Under the pieces are notes generated by a model. That model saw only the letters and a program-made list of their open reading frames with translations, searched no databases and was not told the origin of the DNA. Shown one piece after another: positions 3,135-37,944 of a stretch of 40,000 nucleotides of DNA. The translations under genes and the position numbers were made by a program. How positions within the stretch are numbered: the stretch's first letter is position 1; each line of letters opens with the position of its first letter. Origin of the DNA: Streptococcus thalassemiae (GTDB taxonomy: Bacteria; Bacillota; Bacilli; Lactobacillales; Streptococcaceae); the NCBI RefSeq assembly GCF_903645285.1, contig NZ_CAHJXN010000001.1, positions 1-40,000 on the forward strand, in the 5' to 3' direction.

Positions 3135-3482
3135 CTACCCCAAATGCTTTGCATAGCGTGATCTTCGTGGTTCTGGTAAGGATAATGGCTCAGGACGCAA
3201 TCCTACAGGCGGTTCATTGTCGTATGTGAAGCCCTTGAACTCCCGACGGACATTCTTGCGGATTTCTTGACGCTGTGCCTCTCTACCACGTTCGTATGCT
3301 TGGTTGTACCCTTGGATAATCATAGACGCAAATTCTTGCTCTTCTCGTCTCTCTTCTTCCTTCTGGCGGATTCTCTCCTCTTCCTGCTTATCCAACTGAT
3401 GAGCTATAAACCCTGCGATGATAAATCCTAAAATCACTGCGCCAGTTCCTAAAAGCTGGCTAACTAATGGTGGTTCAAACAT
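3135..3482 (-). CDS. Hypothetical membrane-anchored protein (115 aa)
   Basis: Start moved to the internal ATG at 3482 (RBS TAGGAGAGAGAAA). N-terminal TM helix (LLGTGAVILGFIIAGFIA) followed by a highly charged E/R-rich region. Confidence 0.6.
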   Translation of the reverse strand: MFEPPLVSQLLGTGAVILGFIIAGFIAHQLDKQEEERIRQKEEERREEQEFASMIIQGYNQAYERGREAQRQEIRKNVRREFKGFTYDNEPPVGLRPEPLSLPEPRRSRYAKHLG

Positions 3483-3492
3483 TTTCTCTCTC

Positions 3493-3804
3493 CTATACTC
3501 CGAATTGTTTTTCTTTCTTGATATTCTCAAGCATTTCTGATAAAGTTTCTTTCTTCGCACGATAGCGATTGCGACTTTTCCATTTGACGAACATGCGAAA
3601 TCCTTCGTAATCGATAAATACAATCTTATGAGTTGGGTTATCGATGAACTGCTTAAAATCAGGATGTTCTCGCATTTCACCCGCCCAGACTTTTGCAGTC
3701 CCTGGAGTCAACCCTTCCCACCTCTGACAAAGATGTTTGTAATCGCCATGCGTAGCTTTTTCGTCCACATCAACTGGCTTATAAGTAATTTCTGTTTTCG
3801 GCAT
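3493..3804 (-). CDS. Hypothetical early protein (103 aa), possibly a DUF771 or excisionase-like DNA-binding protein
   Basis: Start at 3804 (GGGAGG RBS), inside the longer track ORF. The family call is a weak recollection. Confidence 0.45.
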   Translation of the reverse strand: MPKTEITYKPVDVDEKATHGDYKHLCQRWEGLTPGTAKVWAGEMREHPDFKQFIDNPTHKIVFIDYEGFRMFVKWKSRNRYRAKKETLSEMLENIKKEKQFGV

Positions 3805-3881
3805 GCAATTTCCTCCCTTTCGTGTTATAATCATGTTGAATATTTAAGTATGCGCCTGATTGCCGTCAGGTGCTTTTATTT

Positions 3882-4100
3882 TTAGATTCTATAGACGCTT
3901 CCATTTGTTGCATAGTACGTCAGCTCGTTCATCTTTCTTGTAAACTGGTAGTCGCTTGTAATCAGCAACCGCTCTTTCAGCAAGCTAGATAGTCCGTAGT
4001 GATTAGCTTCAAACTGTTCAATAATTTTCTGACGTTCTTCAGTAGTCACTTGCTGACAAGGTGCGTCTAGACTCTGTGTCATTGCTAAATTTGAACGCAT
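3882..4100 (-). CDS. Hypothetical protein (72 aa; start uncertain, 4100 or 4082)
   Basis: Track ORF overlapping the 3' end of the loader gene. No strong SD for either ATG. Confidence 0.45.
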   Translation of the reverse strand: MRSNLAMTQSLDAPCQQVTTEERQKIIEQFEANHYGLSSLLKERLLITSDYQFTRKMNELTYYATNGSVYRI

Positions 4101-10880: not shown

Positions 10881-10991
10881 GAAATAACGGACACTTGGCT
10901 GGTCGGTGTACCCAGCATCTCAGATACCTTTTCCAAGGTGCGGCAGGAACCTTTCTGCCCTCAAATGTCTTTCGTTAATGTTATTCTAGCA

Positions 10992-29282: not shown

Positions 29283-29402
29283 TTTGAAAATCCTTTCCTC
29301 TACGCTAGGCTTTTTAGGTGTTCTCCATCACCAGTCGCTCCGCTTTTGTTAGGACTACGGACTTGTCCAATATTTGAACCTTTTAACGCCATGCTCAGGG
29401 CA

Positions 29403-35291: not shown

Positions 35292-35989
35292 GTTTCTTCA
35301 ACCACCCCTTCTAGAGATTTAATAAAACCATCATCATGTATGTTTTCAGGTTCATTGTCAGGCAGTTTAGATTTCAGAATCTCAATTCTCAATCTCTGCT
35401 CCTCTGTAGCAAGGCTTGAGCGAGTCAATTCATCATATGTTTTAATCATATTTCTAAGTTCTGACTGTATTCTTGCAATTGCAGCTAAGGCCTTACCCTG
35501 CTTATCCCAAGCAGTGTGAACTTCATAGCTTTCTCCGCCTTTTGCTGTGCTTGCAACAAGCATAGTGGTTGTATCATCAACGTCCTGAACATACAGAATG
35601 CGCTGGGCATGTAAAAGATTAGCATAGGTTAGCTGAATGTTCTCCCAAAGAATATCAATTGGTTGCTTATCTGCCAGTTGCTCGTATATCTCATGCACTC
35701 CTTGCGGTAGATACTTAGCGAACAGACCATGTTTAAGGGCGTTTTGATTACCTATACTTCCGCCTTTGCTGTTCTTATTGCCTTTCGGCGCTCCCCGTTT
35801 CCTTTTTGTAGTACTACATTCATCTTTTGAAGTACTACAATCACTCCATTTATCTCTTAACTTCCAAACTGAGATAGTTTTTTCAGGCACACCCAACATG
35901 TCACCAATCTTGCGGTTAGTGATGTTTCCGTTATTCTGCTTATAAATTTCAAAAGCTTTATCTCGGTTTGGGTCTCGTGCTCTGCCCAA
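35279..35989 (-). CDS. terS: Terminase small subunit (HTH-containing)
   Basis: Start proposed at TTG 35989 (GGAGG 7 nt upstream), giving MGRARDPNRDKAFEIYKQNNGNITNRKIGDMLGVPEKTISVWK and GAPKGNKNSKGG...NALKHG. The track GTG at 36034 lies inside the terminator hairpin. Confidence 0.8.
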   Translation of the reverse strand: MGRARDPNRDKAFEIYKQNNGNITNRKIGDMLGVPEKTISVWKLRDKWSDCSTSKDECSTTKRKRGAPKGNKNSKGGSIGNQNALKHGLFAKYLPQGVHEIYEQLADKQPIDILWENIQLTYANLLHAQRILYVQDVDDTTTMLVASTAKGGESYEVHTAWDKQGKALAAIARIQSELRNMIKTYDELTRSSLATEEQRLRIEILKSKLPDNEPENIHDDGFIKSLEGVVEETWLD

Positions 35990-36022
35990 CCTATTACCTC
36001 CTATTTGTCCGTTTTGTAAATC

Positions 36023-36046
36023 AAAAAAAGCCACACGATGTGTGAC
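36023..36046 (-). terminator. Strong intrinsic terminator 34 nt upstream of the terS start
   Basis: Minus strand reads GTCACAC atc GTGTGGC followed by TTTTTTT. Confidence 0.7.
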
Positions 36047-36122
36047 CTTCTTGCAAGGCGACTACTACCTTGCGTGTTAATTAGAAATAAATTTTCTGAT
36101 TTATTTTTTTGTAGTCATTTAA

Positions 36123-36196
36123 AACCTCTGAGGGAATCAAACCCTCTAGCTTATAACTTATCCGGAATATAATTAGCTACGCAACCATGCAAGGTT
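36123..36196 (-). ncRNA. tRNA-like element C (non-canonical 12-nt anticodon loop)
   Basis: T-arm GAGGG-TTTGATT-CCCTC. Acceptor AACCTTG/AGAGGTT (6 of 7 bp). 3-bp D stem. Anticodon stem TTATA/TATAA enclosing TTCCGGATAAGT. 4-nt variable loop. Confidence 0.4.
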
Positions 36197-36287
36197 CGGT
36201 CGCTACTGCAACTATTTTTAAGTTAATGAGTGATATATGAATGCTAAGCCTACTGCCTACCCCATTTTTGGGACACAAACACTCAAA

Positions 36288-36387
36288 TGACAGCAGCTGG
36301 AATCGAACCAACTGGTCTAGCAGTAAAACGCACGTTTGGTAAAAAATTAAGGAGACCCAAACAACCTGCTAACCTGTCCTTACTGTC
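36288..36387 (-). ncRNA. tRNA-like element B (100 nt, 17-nt loop on the anticodon stem)
   Basis: T-arm GTTGG-TTCGATT-CCAGC. 7-bp acceptor GACAGTA/TGCTGTC. Stem GTTTGG/CCAAAC with loop GTCTCCTTAATTTTTTA. 21-nt variable region. Confidence 0.4.
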
Positions 36388-36445
36388 TAAGAGACCGAAG
36401 TCTCGGAAATAAAATGAAAAATATAAAGGAGACGTCAATGAACGA

Positions 36446-36528
36446 AATAGAGGGAGGGGCTCGAACCCTCAATGTCTTTACGACACCCTGATTTCAGGTA
36501 ACCATCTACCAAATTCTGAGACCTCTCT
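36446..36528 (-). ncRNA. tRNA-like element A (class II-like, aberrant anticodon loop)
   Basis: T-arm GAGGG-TTCGAGC-CCCTC. Acceptor AGAGAGG/CCTCTAT (6 of 7 bp). U8. Leu-like D loop GAATTTGGTAGA. Variable-arm hairpin TGTC-GTAAA-GACA. The anticodon loop GAAATCA lacks U33 and can close as CCTG-AAAT-CAGG. Confidence 0.45.
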
Positions 36529-36548
36529 TTTCAATTCTTGACACTACC

Positions 36549-36557
36549 ATTCTAACA
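36549..36557 (-). promoter_or_regulatory. Candidate late promoter with an extended -10 (TGtTAGAAT)
   Basis: Lies about 27 nt downstream of the late-activator stop. The -35 is poor, as expected for an activator-dependent promoter. Confidence 0.35.
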
Positions 36558-36583
36558 GATTTTAGACTTCATGCGCACTCACT

Positions 36584-37003
36584 TTAGCTCACTTTGTCTA
36601 TGATAGTCTCCTCTAATTCAGACTCAGCCTGTTTGCGTAATCTGTAATAAGTTGCCTTACTAATTCTCAAATTGTCGCAAATATCCTCAATGTAAGTCTT
36701 AGTAATGTAAGTCATTCTAAGGACGGACCTACTTTTTGGATTTTTAAGCCTGTTGATCATTCTACCTAATTCAAGTTTTCTGTTAATAACCTCTTTAGTA
36801 TCCTGCTCTATAGCCTCTTTCATCACTACCAACTGAGTATAGACATCATCAACTTTTCTAGTCTGTCCACCTTTGACTTTGACACCTGACCACTTAGGAC
36901 TTGAGAGCAAACCTGCCTCAAGCTCATTGATTTCATCTATACGGCTTTGGATGTCCATGTCCAGATCCTGCAACTCTTTCAAGAGTTCTTTAGCCTTGTT
37001 CAC
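36584..37003 (-). CDS. RinA/ArpU-like late transcriptional activator
   Basis: The C-terminal ...KSRSVLRMTYITKTYIEDICDNLRISKATYYRLRKQAESEL parallels the sigma-r4-like HTH of staphylococcal RinA as I recall it. It is the last gene before the packaging module. GTG start with a GGAG RBS. Confidence 0.65.
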   Translation of the reverse strand: MNKAKELLKELQDLDMDIQSRIDEINELEAGLLSSPKWSGVKVKGGQTRKVDDVYTQLVVMKEAIEQDTKEVINRKLELGRMINRLKNPKSRSVLRMTYITKTYIEDICDNLRISKATYYRLRKQAESELEETIIDKVS

Positions 37004-37080: not shown

Positions 37081-37944
37081 CTATTCTTTATTCGTAATCA
37101 CACTACCTGCACCGTTAACAGTGACCCAGCCATGCTTCTCTCTGGCTTCTGCTTCTTTCATCCGGATAAGATTATCTGTGATTGAGTCTGACTTAGCTTT
37201 ATTGGCTTTGGCTTCACCTTCTGCTTTGATGATACCTGCATCTGCTTCTGCTTGAGCTTGAACTTTCTTGGTATCGGCTTCAACCTTAGCTTTTTCCTGT
37301 TCCTGTTTAGCTGTATCTATTTCCTTTTGTTTTACAGATTCATTTTTGATTGCTGCTTCAATTTCATCACCTGCGTCTTGGTCTGTGATGGTAAAGGATA
37401 CAAACTCCAAATCGTAAGACTCAAATTTTTCTTTAAGAGCCTTATCAATTGCCTCATAGACCTCAGTACGCTTGTCACCCAGTACATCATAAATATCATA
37501 ATTACCTGTTACCGATTCTATAGCACGTTGAACTGCTGGAGATACTACACTATCATTTACATTTTCTAACGTTGTGTAGTTAGAAAAAACAGTCATAGCC
37601 TTTTCTTTATTAACACGATATTTCACATCGATATTAGTATTCAACCATTGACCGTCTTTTGTCTGAGTCGTGATTTTCTCCATTGTTTTTGTTTGAACAG
37701 ACGTAGATAAGGTGTAGACTTTGTCAATAAATGGCATGTTTAGATGATATCCTGTTTGCAGGGTGTTTTCTTGAACACCTCCAATTGCGCTAACCTTAAC
37801 TCCAACTGTATTAGCTGGGATACGTTTCACAGCCGTAAGACGAAAAATTCCAAGTGAAGCAACAGCTGCAACTGTAATGATACCGCCCTTAGCAAGTTTT
37901 GTAAGTGTCGTTTTTCCTGTTTCATGATTGTATTGTGTAAACAT
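37081..37944 (-). CDS. SPFH/Band-7 (prohibitin/HflK-like) membrane protein
   Basis: N-terminal TM helix (GGIITVAAVASLGIF). SPFH core IPANTVGVKVSAIGGVQENTLQTGYHLNMPFIDKV...TKDGQWLNTNIDVKYRV. C-terminal Ala/Glu/Lys coiled coil. Confidence 0.8.
   Translation of the reverse strand: MFTQYNHETGKTTLTKLAKGGIITVAAVASLGIFRLTAVKRIPANTVGVKVSAIGGVQENTLQTGYHLNMPFIDKVYTLSTSVQTKTMEKITTQTKDGQWLNTNIDVKYRVNKEKAMTVFSNYTTLENVNDSVVSPAVQRAIESVTGNYDIYDVLGDKRTEVYEAIDKALKEKFESYDLEFVSFTITDQDAGDEIEAAIKNESVKQKEIDTAKQEQEKAKVEADTKKVQAQAEADAGIIKAEGEAKANKAKSDSITDNLIRMKEAEAREKHGWVTVNGAGSVITNKE

Follow-up and report, generated by a model that had tools for sequence, protein, structure and literature searches.

The window analysed here is a 40,000-nucleotide (nt) stretch of a Streptococcus thalassemiae contig (NZ_CAHJXN010000001.1, positions 1 to 40,000). 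Between a phage late-activator gene and the terminase gene terS, on the minus strand, it contains 594 nt (35990–36583) that are non-coding and that hold three modules resembling transfer RNA (tRNA), here called A, B and C. None of them is a decoding tRNA, and the same slot is filled by a mosaic array of cassettes in about 200 Streptococcus prophages, from the mitis group to S. suis. Our favoured reading, which we hold with roughly even confidence, is that the region is a prophage island of tRNA and non-coding RNA (ncRNA) genes heading the late operon, in which A, B and C would be tRNA-scaffolded small RNAs that are released by ribonucleases (RNases) P and Z and act in trans, C as a dimer.

The region was singled out by an initial annotation made from the sequence letters, which described structured RNA with three tRNA-like modules bearing abnormal anticodon arms. 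Our analysis supports this core description, and direct reading of the minus strand confirms nearly all of the coordinates listed in it.

Three tRNA-like modules that do not decode

The three modules and the palindrome in the loop of C are placed as follows.

36446–36528, minus strand: module A, a class-II tRNA-like RNA (direct reading, scanner, homologue alignment)
36288–36387, minus strand: module B, a tRNA-like three-way junction (scanner, fold, direct reading)
36123–36196, minus strand: module C, a tRNA-like RNA (alignment of 53 homologues, RNAalifold)
36161–36166, minus strand: UCCGGA, a 6-nt palindrome at the centre of the 12-nt loop of C (alignment)

A scanner that requires a 5-base-pair (bp) T stem, a T-loop consensus and at least six of seven acceptor pairs returns exactly A, B and C over the 594 nt. 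Dinucleotide shuffles of the 40-kb window yield 4.3 matches over the 80 kb of its two strands, which scales to about 0.03 for the stretch, in line with the original argument that three such T-arm modules are unlikely by chance. All three have an acceptor stem, a 5-bp T arm with a 7-nt T loop (UUCRANN) and the G53–C61 pair. The canonical anticodon arm (5-bp stem, 7-nt loop, U33 and a purine at position 37) is absent from A, B and C; no CCA is encoded after any of them, and their trailers are U-rich.

ARAGORN at its default settings finds no tRNA gene and no transfer-messenger RNA (tmRNA) in the window, and Rfam at the gathering threshold finds no known family in the 0.6-kb region. When the ARAGORN threshold is lowered, A emerges at 90%, B at 85% and C at 80% of the default, with nonsensical anticodons. 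Relaxing Rfam to E ≤ 10 brings up the tRNA model (RF00005) for module A only, at 14.8 bits against a threshold of 29 (E = 6), with no tRNA match for B or C. At the same cut-off, Y RNA/YrlA, tmRNA and the other catalogued tRNA-like families have no match in 35900–36700, and two matches to small nucleolar RNAs are attributable to chance. GOLLD (RF02032) has no Rfam match in the window. Neither program calls an ordinary decoding tRNA in the region; A, B and C are not decoding tRNAs. Taken as single sequences, the modules have unexceptional folding z-scores (−0.7 to −1.9), so the support for them comes from relatives and not from folding energy.

A mosaic array in related prophages

Related loci were fetched by the activator protein, 80 from IMG/VR and 67 from representative genomes, each at most 5 kb long. 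They span S. mitis, S. oralis, S. pseudopneumoniae, S. infantis, S. cristatus, S. suis, S. varani and others, and blastn places pieces of the region in 110 Streptococcus phage records. A 55-nt piece around an extended −10 promoter box is present in all 82 loci first fetched, and what follows it is a shuffled set of cassettes. Cassettes were counted on the 117 loci with enough downstream sequence.

Module A: 44 of 117 loci
Module B: 6 of 117 loci
Module C: 57 of 117 loci
Element following C (post-C element): 66 of 117 loci
Other tRNA-like families: 5, 5 and 26 of 117 loci
Canonical tRNA (ARAGORN): 44 of 117 loci
GOLLD RNA: 15 of 117 loci
None of these elements: 22 of 117 loci

Genuine tRNAs in the slot of relatives comprise Ser(GCU), Lys(UUU), Phe, Trp, Asp, Tyr and Arg. 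GOLLD matches RF02032 with 259–275 bits in the same leader of three relatives (3366–4034 of locus L014, 3569–3963 of L007 and 3438–3827 of L245). GOLLD and ROOL are described as lying in prophages near tRNA islands, with unknown function and with tRNAs sometimes inside GOLLD (PMC12286853), and some pneumococcal prophages carry a tRNA-Ser mid-genome (PMC8637289). The A, B and C families are absent from Rfam 15, and the literature searched holds no description of them, only the mention of the mid-genome pneumococcal tRNA-Ser. The kind of locus, a prophage tRNA island with GOLLD, is known; as far as Rfam 15 and the literature searched go, the three families, the covarying palindromic loop of C and a recurrent CUCC loop are new.

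The GOLLD of L014 appears to be flanked by a tRNA-like acceptor helix and T arm, the helix with its 5′ strand UUGGAAUAGG near 3366 and its 3′ strand CAGGUUCGAAUCCUGUCGUUCCAA at 4011–4034; from the sequence, this GOLLD may sit inside a tRNA scaffold. An odd 79–81-nt gene related to tRNA-Lys follows C in 26 of the 117 loci (for example 2024–2104 of L002, 3403–3483 of L006 and 3426–3506 of L203). ARAGORN reports it as 'tRNA-???' with a two-base anticodon or as Phe(aaa), and the Rfam tRNA model gives it 40–42 bits. Its 3′ half equals the 3′ bracket of the L014 GOLLD, and it may represent an 'empty' scaffold. Among the genuine tRNA-Lys(UUU) copies of relatives, the first anticodon-loop base varies (GGUAGA-U/C/G-UUUUAAUCUAU), and anticodon-loop variation of this kind has been proposed to evade anticodon nucleases (PMC10264068).

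Module C and its palindromic loop

Module C consists of a 6-bp acceptor stem, a 3-bp mini D hairpin with a 4-nt loop, an 'anticodon' arm of 5 + 4 bp that ends in a 12-nt loop, and a T arm, with no variable region. The 12-nt loop, first drawn by hand, was reproduced independently by RNAalifold, which adds the 4-bp inner stem. The T-arm loop, UUUGAUU, is invariant, including a U at position 56 instead of C. Across 53 distinct homologues, 99.6% of the pair cells hold standard pairs and seven pairs change on both sides; none of 500 shuffles matched the observed percentage paired, the double-change counts or the covariation score, and sliding the 3′ partners by 1–3 columns left only 26–52% paired. 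Compensatory changes are seen in both the acceptor stem and the long arm of the S. suis copies. The family is narrow: a search of 79 sources with a covariance model of C turned up no divergent members. Wherever C occurs, a late-activator gene and a −10 box lie upstream of it, and this holds for other activator families too. At loci whose neighbouring activator gene has 69% identity to the window at third codon positions, C retains 94.7%, a comparison that is supportive rather than proof for C, and likewise for A below, since recombination could decouple module from gene.

The hexamer at the centre of the 12-nt loop takes the forms UCCGGA, CCUAGG, CCCGGG and GUCGAC (100 distinct contexts), the sole exception being CCUAGA in two contexts. 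Its three symmetric pairs all covary, 98.7% of the cells are complementary, and all six positions vary so that only the symmetry is constant. The two central bases are adjacent and so unable to pair inside one hairpin. Because of this adjacency, and because symmetry is kept while every position varies, intermolecular self-pairing is the simplest reading, and the alignment suggests that the palindrome is a candidate kissing-loop homodimer site. In RNAcofold, two copies pair through their palindromes, and the dimer comes out 11.9 kcal/mol lower in energy than two monomers; this result is expected of any palindrome and is not evidence for pairing. Scans for further palindrome types (purine first; purine–pyrimidine centre; non-C at the second position in metagenomes; IMG/VR) gave none beyond GUCGAC, and two metagenome matches from these scans are unrelated chance matches. 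Restriction-site avoidance or bait through TCCGGA was considered and rejected, with 4 sites observed and 5.6 expected in the window.

Module A, a class-II tRNA-like RNA

Module A has an acceptor helix, a 3-bp D stem with the D loop GAAUUUGGUAGA, and a T arm with the loop UUCGAGC. Its lower half is made of a 4-bp CCUG/CAGG hairpin (loop AAAU), directly followed by a 5-bp variable hairpin with a GUAAA loop. The class-II layout first proposed is kept, and the D loop, which contains GG, aligns to the tRNA consensus in the Rfam alignment; we take this loop to be Leu-like, as the initial annotation did. The anticodon arm with a 7-nt loop initially drawn gives way to the CCUG/CAGG stem with a 4- or 6-nt loop, which fits better: the alternative 5-bp stem with a 7-nt loop is broken in 10 of 29 variants and would give A33 and C37.

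In 29 distinct full-length homologues, 96% of the pair cells are paired, and double changes occur in the T stem and the variable arm; stem covariation among relatives is thus found in A as well as in C. In the comparison made above for C, with 69% identity at third codon positions of the activator gene, A has 85%. A genuine tRNA-Ser(GCU) fills the slot of A in relatives, and related phiARI phage records annotate the module as 'tRNA-OTHER'. Since their stems change in compensatory fashion and both exceed neighbouring third codon positions in conservation, the comparison with relatives indicates that A and C are under purifying selection and are not plain, decaying pseudogenes.

Module B and a recurrent CUCC motif

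Module B combines a 7-bp acceptor stem, a long arm ending in a 6-bp GUUUGG/CCAAAC stem, and a T arm with the loop UUCGAUU; the fold is without a D arm. Direct reading and folding agree with the 17-nt loop described previously, GUCUCCUUAAUUUUUUA at 36356–36340. B is rare, and its 13 distinct variants show single pair-preserving changes and changes in the length of the U-run in the loop, with the loop motif GUCUCCUU invariant in all 13. An island of CUCC is kept amid variable sequence in B, in the spacer 5′ of B, in the families D7, D7b and E11, and in one further family. In relatives, CUCCUU followed by AU-rich sequence stands ahead of B, D7 and other scaffold families, and D7 and D7b, scaffolds unrelated to B, replace it in other phages. 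By its sequence, the CUCCUU loop of B resembles the anti-Shine–Dalgarno sequence of 16S ribosomal RNA.

The further tRNA-like families in B's slot can be described as follows. D7/D7b has the form GGCGGUGACAGG...CUCC...UUCGGUUCGAUUCCGG..CGCC, E11 is 86 nt long, and one family was seen in L096. These families, found for example in L081, L021, L005, L125 and L100, all have an internal CUCC, and the D7/D7b and L096 families come after a CUCCUU spacer and a small hairpin.

A proposed island of tRNA-scaffolded RNAs

Starting from the anatomy, conservation, covariation, mosaic distribution and genomic context observed above, we infer transcription, processing, dimerization and action in trans in the following way. 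Transcription would start at the extended −10 promoter just after the gene for the sigma-like activator and would yield a transcript of about 520 nt ending at an intrinsic terminator 34 nt before terS, so that the late genes would be reached only by read-through of that terminator. The transcript would be a string of independent cassettes, which in the present phage would all be tRNA-derived and non-decoding. In tRNAs, RNase P, RNase Z and the CCA-adding enzyme all recognize the acceptor helix together with the T arm. Each module, like the other tRNA-like families, keeps this 'top half', an acceptor helix stacked on a T arm, with a U-rich trailer in place of CCA; because the top half is the target of these enzymes, the modules would be cut out as stable RNAs of about 75–100 nt.

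The 'bottom half' of each module would have been rebuilt into a different effector surface. C would show its self-complementary 6 nt in the 12-nt loop and form a probable kissing-loop homodimer, B would present CUCCUU in its 17-nt loop in the manner of a 16S anti-Shine–Dalgarno sequence, and A would carry a short hairpin and a GNRA-like variable hairpin. Comparison of the variants indicates that these effector loops, the palindrome and CUCC, are selected. The modules would act in trans as accessory, often swapped small RNAs, like the true tRNAs and GOLLD of relatives.

Several observations weigh against this proposal. The 22 relatives without any cassette mean that any function is dispensable. 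Homologues are close (mean column identity 89%) and recombine freely, so the covariation rests on few independent events, as does the palindrome, known in four sequence types only. B has no double-sided pair changes among its 13 variants, and part of the CUCC conservation in D7 may be structural, through GG...CC pairing. A looks partly eroded: its acceptor pairs 1–72 and 2–71 are mismatched in 7/29 and 15/29 homologues, respectively, and an exact 21-nt deletion of the D arm (UCUCAGAAUUUGGUAGAUGGU) occurs in 12 of 41 distinct variants, which keep every other helix (for example L004, L005, L008, L017, L208 and L223). The 5′ leader and 3′ trailer of A can moreover lengthen its acceptor helix, possibly hindering tRNA-type processing.

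A broader idea, which we put forward tentatively and regard as somewhat doubtful, is that the tRNA top half is, in streptococcal prophages, a general processing scaffold for swappable effector RNAs supplied from the late-operon leader. The palindrome variants would then be mutually exclusive pairing specificities, the B- and D7-type RNAs would be tRNA-framed anti-Shine–Dalgarno RNAs, and GOLLD would be delivered likewise. Engineered tRNA scaffolds work on this principle, with the tRNA frame giving an inserted RNA processing and stability. If true, the scaffold idea would explain why 'tRNA-OTHER' calls cluster before terminase genes, would provide a natural precedent for tRNA-scaffolded RNA delivery, and would offer an entry point to prophage ncRNA islands during lytic growth in human commensals and pathogens.

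Alternative explanations

We think it unlikely that the modules are decoys or sponges for host factors that read the tRNA top half or class-II tRNAs, such as tRNA-targeting nucleases or transferases, and that they shield the host or phage tRNA pool late in infection. The idea has attractions. Acceptor and T arm are the parts kept in all three modules, genuine phage tRNAs share the slot, among them Lys(UUU), which nucleases classically target, and the cassettes turn over fast, as is typical of loci in an arms race. Counter-defence by phage tRNAs is well documented (PMC10264068, PMC11555353, PMC13056530), and a defence that cuts the 3′ tails of tRNAs exists (PMC12851939). However, the anticodon loop that anticodon nucleases read is missing from A, B and C, which weakens the version of the idea directed at such enzymes. 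A pure top-half decoy also needs neither a covarying palindrome nor a conserved CUCC loop, and the acceptor end of A, the target of a tail-directed enzyme, is the least well kept helix of that module. Nor did any tRNA-targeting system come to light in the hosts, although no search aimed at one was made.

It also seems quite improbable to us that the array is solely a cis-acting leader of the late operon with no free-RNA role, whether as RNase P/Z 'punctuation', as protective 5′ structures or as a terminator read-through device of the put or 6S type. The order of promoter, structured RNA, terminator and terS recurs in 109 of 131 relatives, where a terminator-like hairpin and T-run lie a median 34 nt upstream of the first late open reading frame (ORF), and there is no promoter space between terminator and terS. 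The array always follows the late-activator gene and the −10 box, and tRNA-like processing signals are known in messenger RNAs, for example the t-elements of plant mitochondria. Against a cis role, every module is optional, and with 22 of 117 relatives lacking all of them none can be required for late transcription; genes acting in trans (genuine tRNAs and GOLLD) fill the same slots; a processing signal cannot account for selection on a palindrome or for loops identical from S. mitis to S. suis; and no Rfam cis-regulatory family matches at E ≤ 10. The lambda-like layout suggested in the initial annotation is therefore borne out by the relatives, whereas an essential cis antitermination element is unlikely because every module is dispensable across them.

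That the modules are decaying tRNA pseudogenes, passive relics in a recombination hot spot, we consider very improbable. A combines a tRNA-consensus D loop and class-II layout with a truncated anticodon loop, mismatched acceptor ends and frequent loss of the D arm, all three modules fall below tRNA-finder thresholds, and all are dispensable. Derivation from tRNA genes is indeed the part of this earlier suggestion that stands, given the class-II layout of A and the tRNA-Ser in its slot. Passive decay does not fit: stems are maintained by compensatory changes, C is about 95% identical against 69% at neutral sites of the neighbouring gene, features foreign to tRNA are conserved (U56 in the T loop of C, palindrome symmetry and CUCC), and the D-arm deletion in A is exact and leaves the other helices intact.

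A DNA-level pac/cos or protein-binding site, with terminase or a dimeric protein binding the C palindrome or the GAGAC repeated four times on the plus strand, has a next to negligible probability despite a place directly upstream of terS typical of such regions and a 6-bp DNA palindrome of the form expected for a dimeric protein: at least four unrelated families of first late gene are found downstream of C, and likewise of each palindrome type, and every one of these families is also found without C; the palindrome varies at all six positions with symmetry alone kept, which points to base pairing and not to sequence-specific protein recognition; it lies in the apical loop of a covarying RNA fold; and TCCGGA is neither enriched nor avoided in the window.

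Comparison with known systems

We know of no function for phage tRNA islands and the giant RNAs GOLLD and ROOL that neighbour them. The islands with GOLLD or ROOL in Lactobacillales prophages and in Mycobacterium tRNA arrays resemble the present locus as non-coding clusters of tRNAs and structured RNA in a prophage, and relatives of the present phage carry GOLLD and canonical tRNAs in exactly this slot. The window itself differs in having neither GOLLD nor a canonical tRNA, its three occupants belonging to families outside Rfam 15. It thereby offers small, tractable island members, three families of 75–100 nt found in hundreds of prophages of the S. mitis and S. pneumoniae group, each with a testable feature: a palindrome that would form a dimer, a CUCC loop that would bind Shine–Dalgarno-like sequence, and a half that would be an RNase P/Z substrate. 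The locus is real and occurs widely, and it can be tested directly; phylogenetically, the family is narrow, and the function given here is a proposal.

The 'species 1 and 2' RNAs of the bacteriophage T4 tRNA cluster are stable RNAs of unknown function, transcribed together with phage tRNAs and freed by the machinery that processes tRNAs. They resemble the RNAs proposed here in kind, as small RNAs beside phage tRNAs. T4 is a virulent coliphage; the present phage is temperate and streptococcal, and its array stands at the head of the late operon, with a terminator before terS.

Kissing-loop or intermolecular loop pairing is known from the dimerization initiation site of human immunodeficiency virus type 1 (HIV-1), with GCGCGC and GUGCAC in different subtypes, and from the packaging RNA of phage phi29. 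The HIV-1 site shares with C a 6-nt self-complementary sequence in an apical loop whose variants keep self-complementarity. It differs from C, in which the loop has 12 nt and not 9, the scaffold is tRNA-like, the element is optional and unrelated to packaging genes, and the dimer is a prediction.

In phage lambda, the PR′ promoter, 6S RNA and terminator tR′ form a leader to the late genes, and HK022 has its put sites. As in those systems, a promoter here lies by a late regulator gene and is followed by a short non-coding RNA and a terminator before the late genes. In contrast, the RNA content here is modular, tRNA-derived and dispensable, the only piece universal among relatives is the promoter box, and the regulator is a DUF1492 sigma-like protein; no equivalents of Q or qut and no put-like paired stem-loops were identified.

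Phage tRNAs that counter PrrC, PARIS, retron PtuAB or Schlafen defences are, like the cassettes here, accessory and fast-changing genes in phage genomes, but they decode and have nuclease-resistant anticodon loops, whereas A, B and C have no usable anticodon loop. Small RNAs (sRNAs) with C-rich, anti-Shine–Dalgarno-like loops are known in Firmicutes, among them the UCCC-motif sRNAs of Staphylococcus aureus and the streptococcal cia-dependent small RNAs (csRNAs). B resembles them in presenting CUCCUU in a large apical loop; the motif spans only 4–6 nt, part of its conservation may be structural, and no target was identified.

Promoter, spacers and terminator

The remaining features of the region are these.

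36549–36557, minus strand: extended −10 box TGTTAGAAT, a putative promoter (direct reading)
36529–36548, minus strand: stretch GGTAGTGTCAAGAATTGAAA just 3′ of the −10 box and conserved together with it
36405–36445, minus strand: A–B spacer with GUCUCCUUU (36433–36425), then an AU-rich tract (direct reading)
36391–36404, minus strand: UUCG-tetraloop hairpin GAGAC-UUCG-GUCUC (direct reading, relatives)
36197–36287, minus strand: 91-nt structured spacer 5′ of C (fold, relatives)
36053–36116, minus strand: post-C element of GACUAC (36116–36111), an A-rich tract and a GCAAGG/CCUUGC hairpin (36073–36053) (direct reading, relatives)
36023–36046, minus strand: intrinsic terminator GUCACAC-AUC-GUGUGGC plus seven U, ending 34 nt before the terS start (direct reading, fold)
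36002–35997, minus strand: ribosome-binding site of terS, AGGAGG (read directly)
35989–35987, minus strand: TTG start codon of terS (the protein from that start matches NF040601 with 218 bits, and phrog_509)

The GGTAGTGTCAAGAATTGAAA stretch likely contains the transcription start, at a position predicted from the sequence, and the short 5′ leader of A. Behind other activator types, the array is preceded by variant −10 boxes and GGTAGTRTCAAG-like sequence. A generic promoter scan missed the extended −10 box, and the accompanying scan for terminators picked the T arms of A and B over the real terminator. That terminator lies in a 123-nt 3′ segment with a folding z-score of −3.7.

The stem of the UUCG hairpin appears in relatives as GAGGC/GCCUC, GAGGU/GCCUC and GAGGC/GUCUC with pairing kept, and because the stem covaries the hairpin is a feature at the RNA level. 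The 91-nt spacer is a multi-hairpin closed by GAGUG...CACUC, followed by AUUAACUUA and a GUUGC-AGUA-GCGAC hairpin. It accompanies C (51 loci with the spacer and 57 with C, of 117), and in relatives its closing stems become GGGUG/CACCC and its last hairpin GUCG/CGAC. The post-C element occurs with or without C, and its hairpin stem covaries (GCAAGU/ACUUGC, GCAAGU/GCUUGC). The hairpin loop holds GUAGUC (36065–36060), complementary to the upstream GACUAC; one relative has a compensatory pair of changes (GGCUAC/GUAGCC) and two have single mismatches, thin evidence on which the two segments are a candidate pseudoknot.

Flanking genes and coding potential

The 594 nt follow the stop codon of a gene for a 139-amino-acid (aa) protein (36584–37003). 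This protein has a DUF1492 match (160 bits) and weak similarity to ArpU, RinA and extracytoplasmic function sigma factors, and the downstream genes are terS and then terL; these profile matches agree with the flanking genes named at the outset, a late activator and terS. The early statement that no ORF exceeds about six codons holds roughly, and for ATG starts only, the longest ATG ORF having 14 codons. TTG- or GTG-start ORFs of 25–51 aa on the minus strand and ORFs of 25–44 aa on the plus strand all overlap the modules. They are not credible genes because in relatives they are broken by 1-nt changes in loop length, as in the U-run of B, and disrupted by insertions and deletions of whole modules or cassettes.

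On the plus strand (36414–36491), an ATG starts 5 nt downstream of AAAGGAGAC, the complement of the spacer sequence GUCUCCUUU. The 17-codon ORF that begins there runs antisense to module A and shares the reading frame of the 25-aa ORF that contains it. This arrangement is probably a by-product of the CUCC motif.

Just upstream of the late-activator gene, a gene at 37081–37944 on the minus strand encodes an SPFH / Band 7 family protein (95 bits), unusual prophage cargo at that place. Elsewhere on the minus strand, Rfam finds two catalogued phage-associated structured RNAs of unknown function, a skipping-rope RNA at 10890–10969 (RF02924, 70.8 bits) and a GP20-b RNA at 29306–29368 (RF03003, 52.8 bits).

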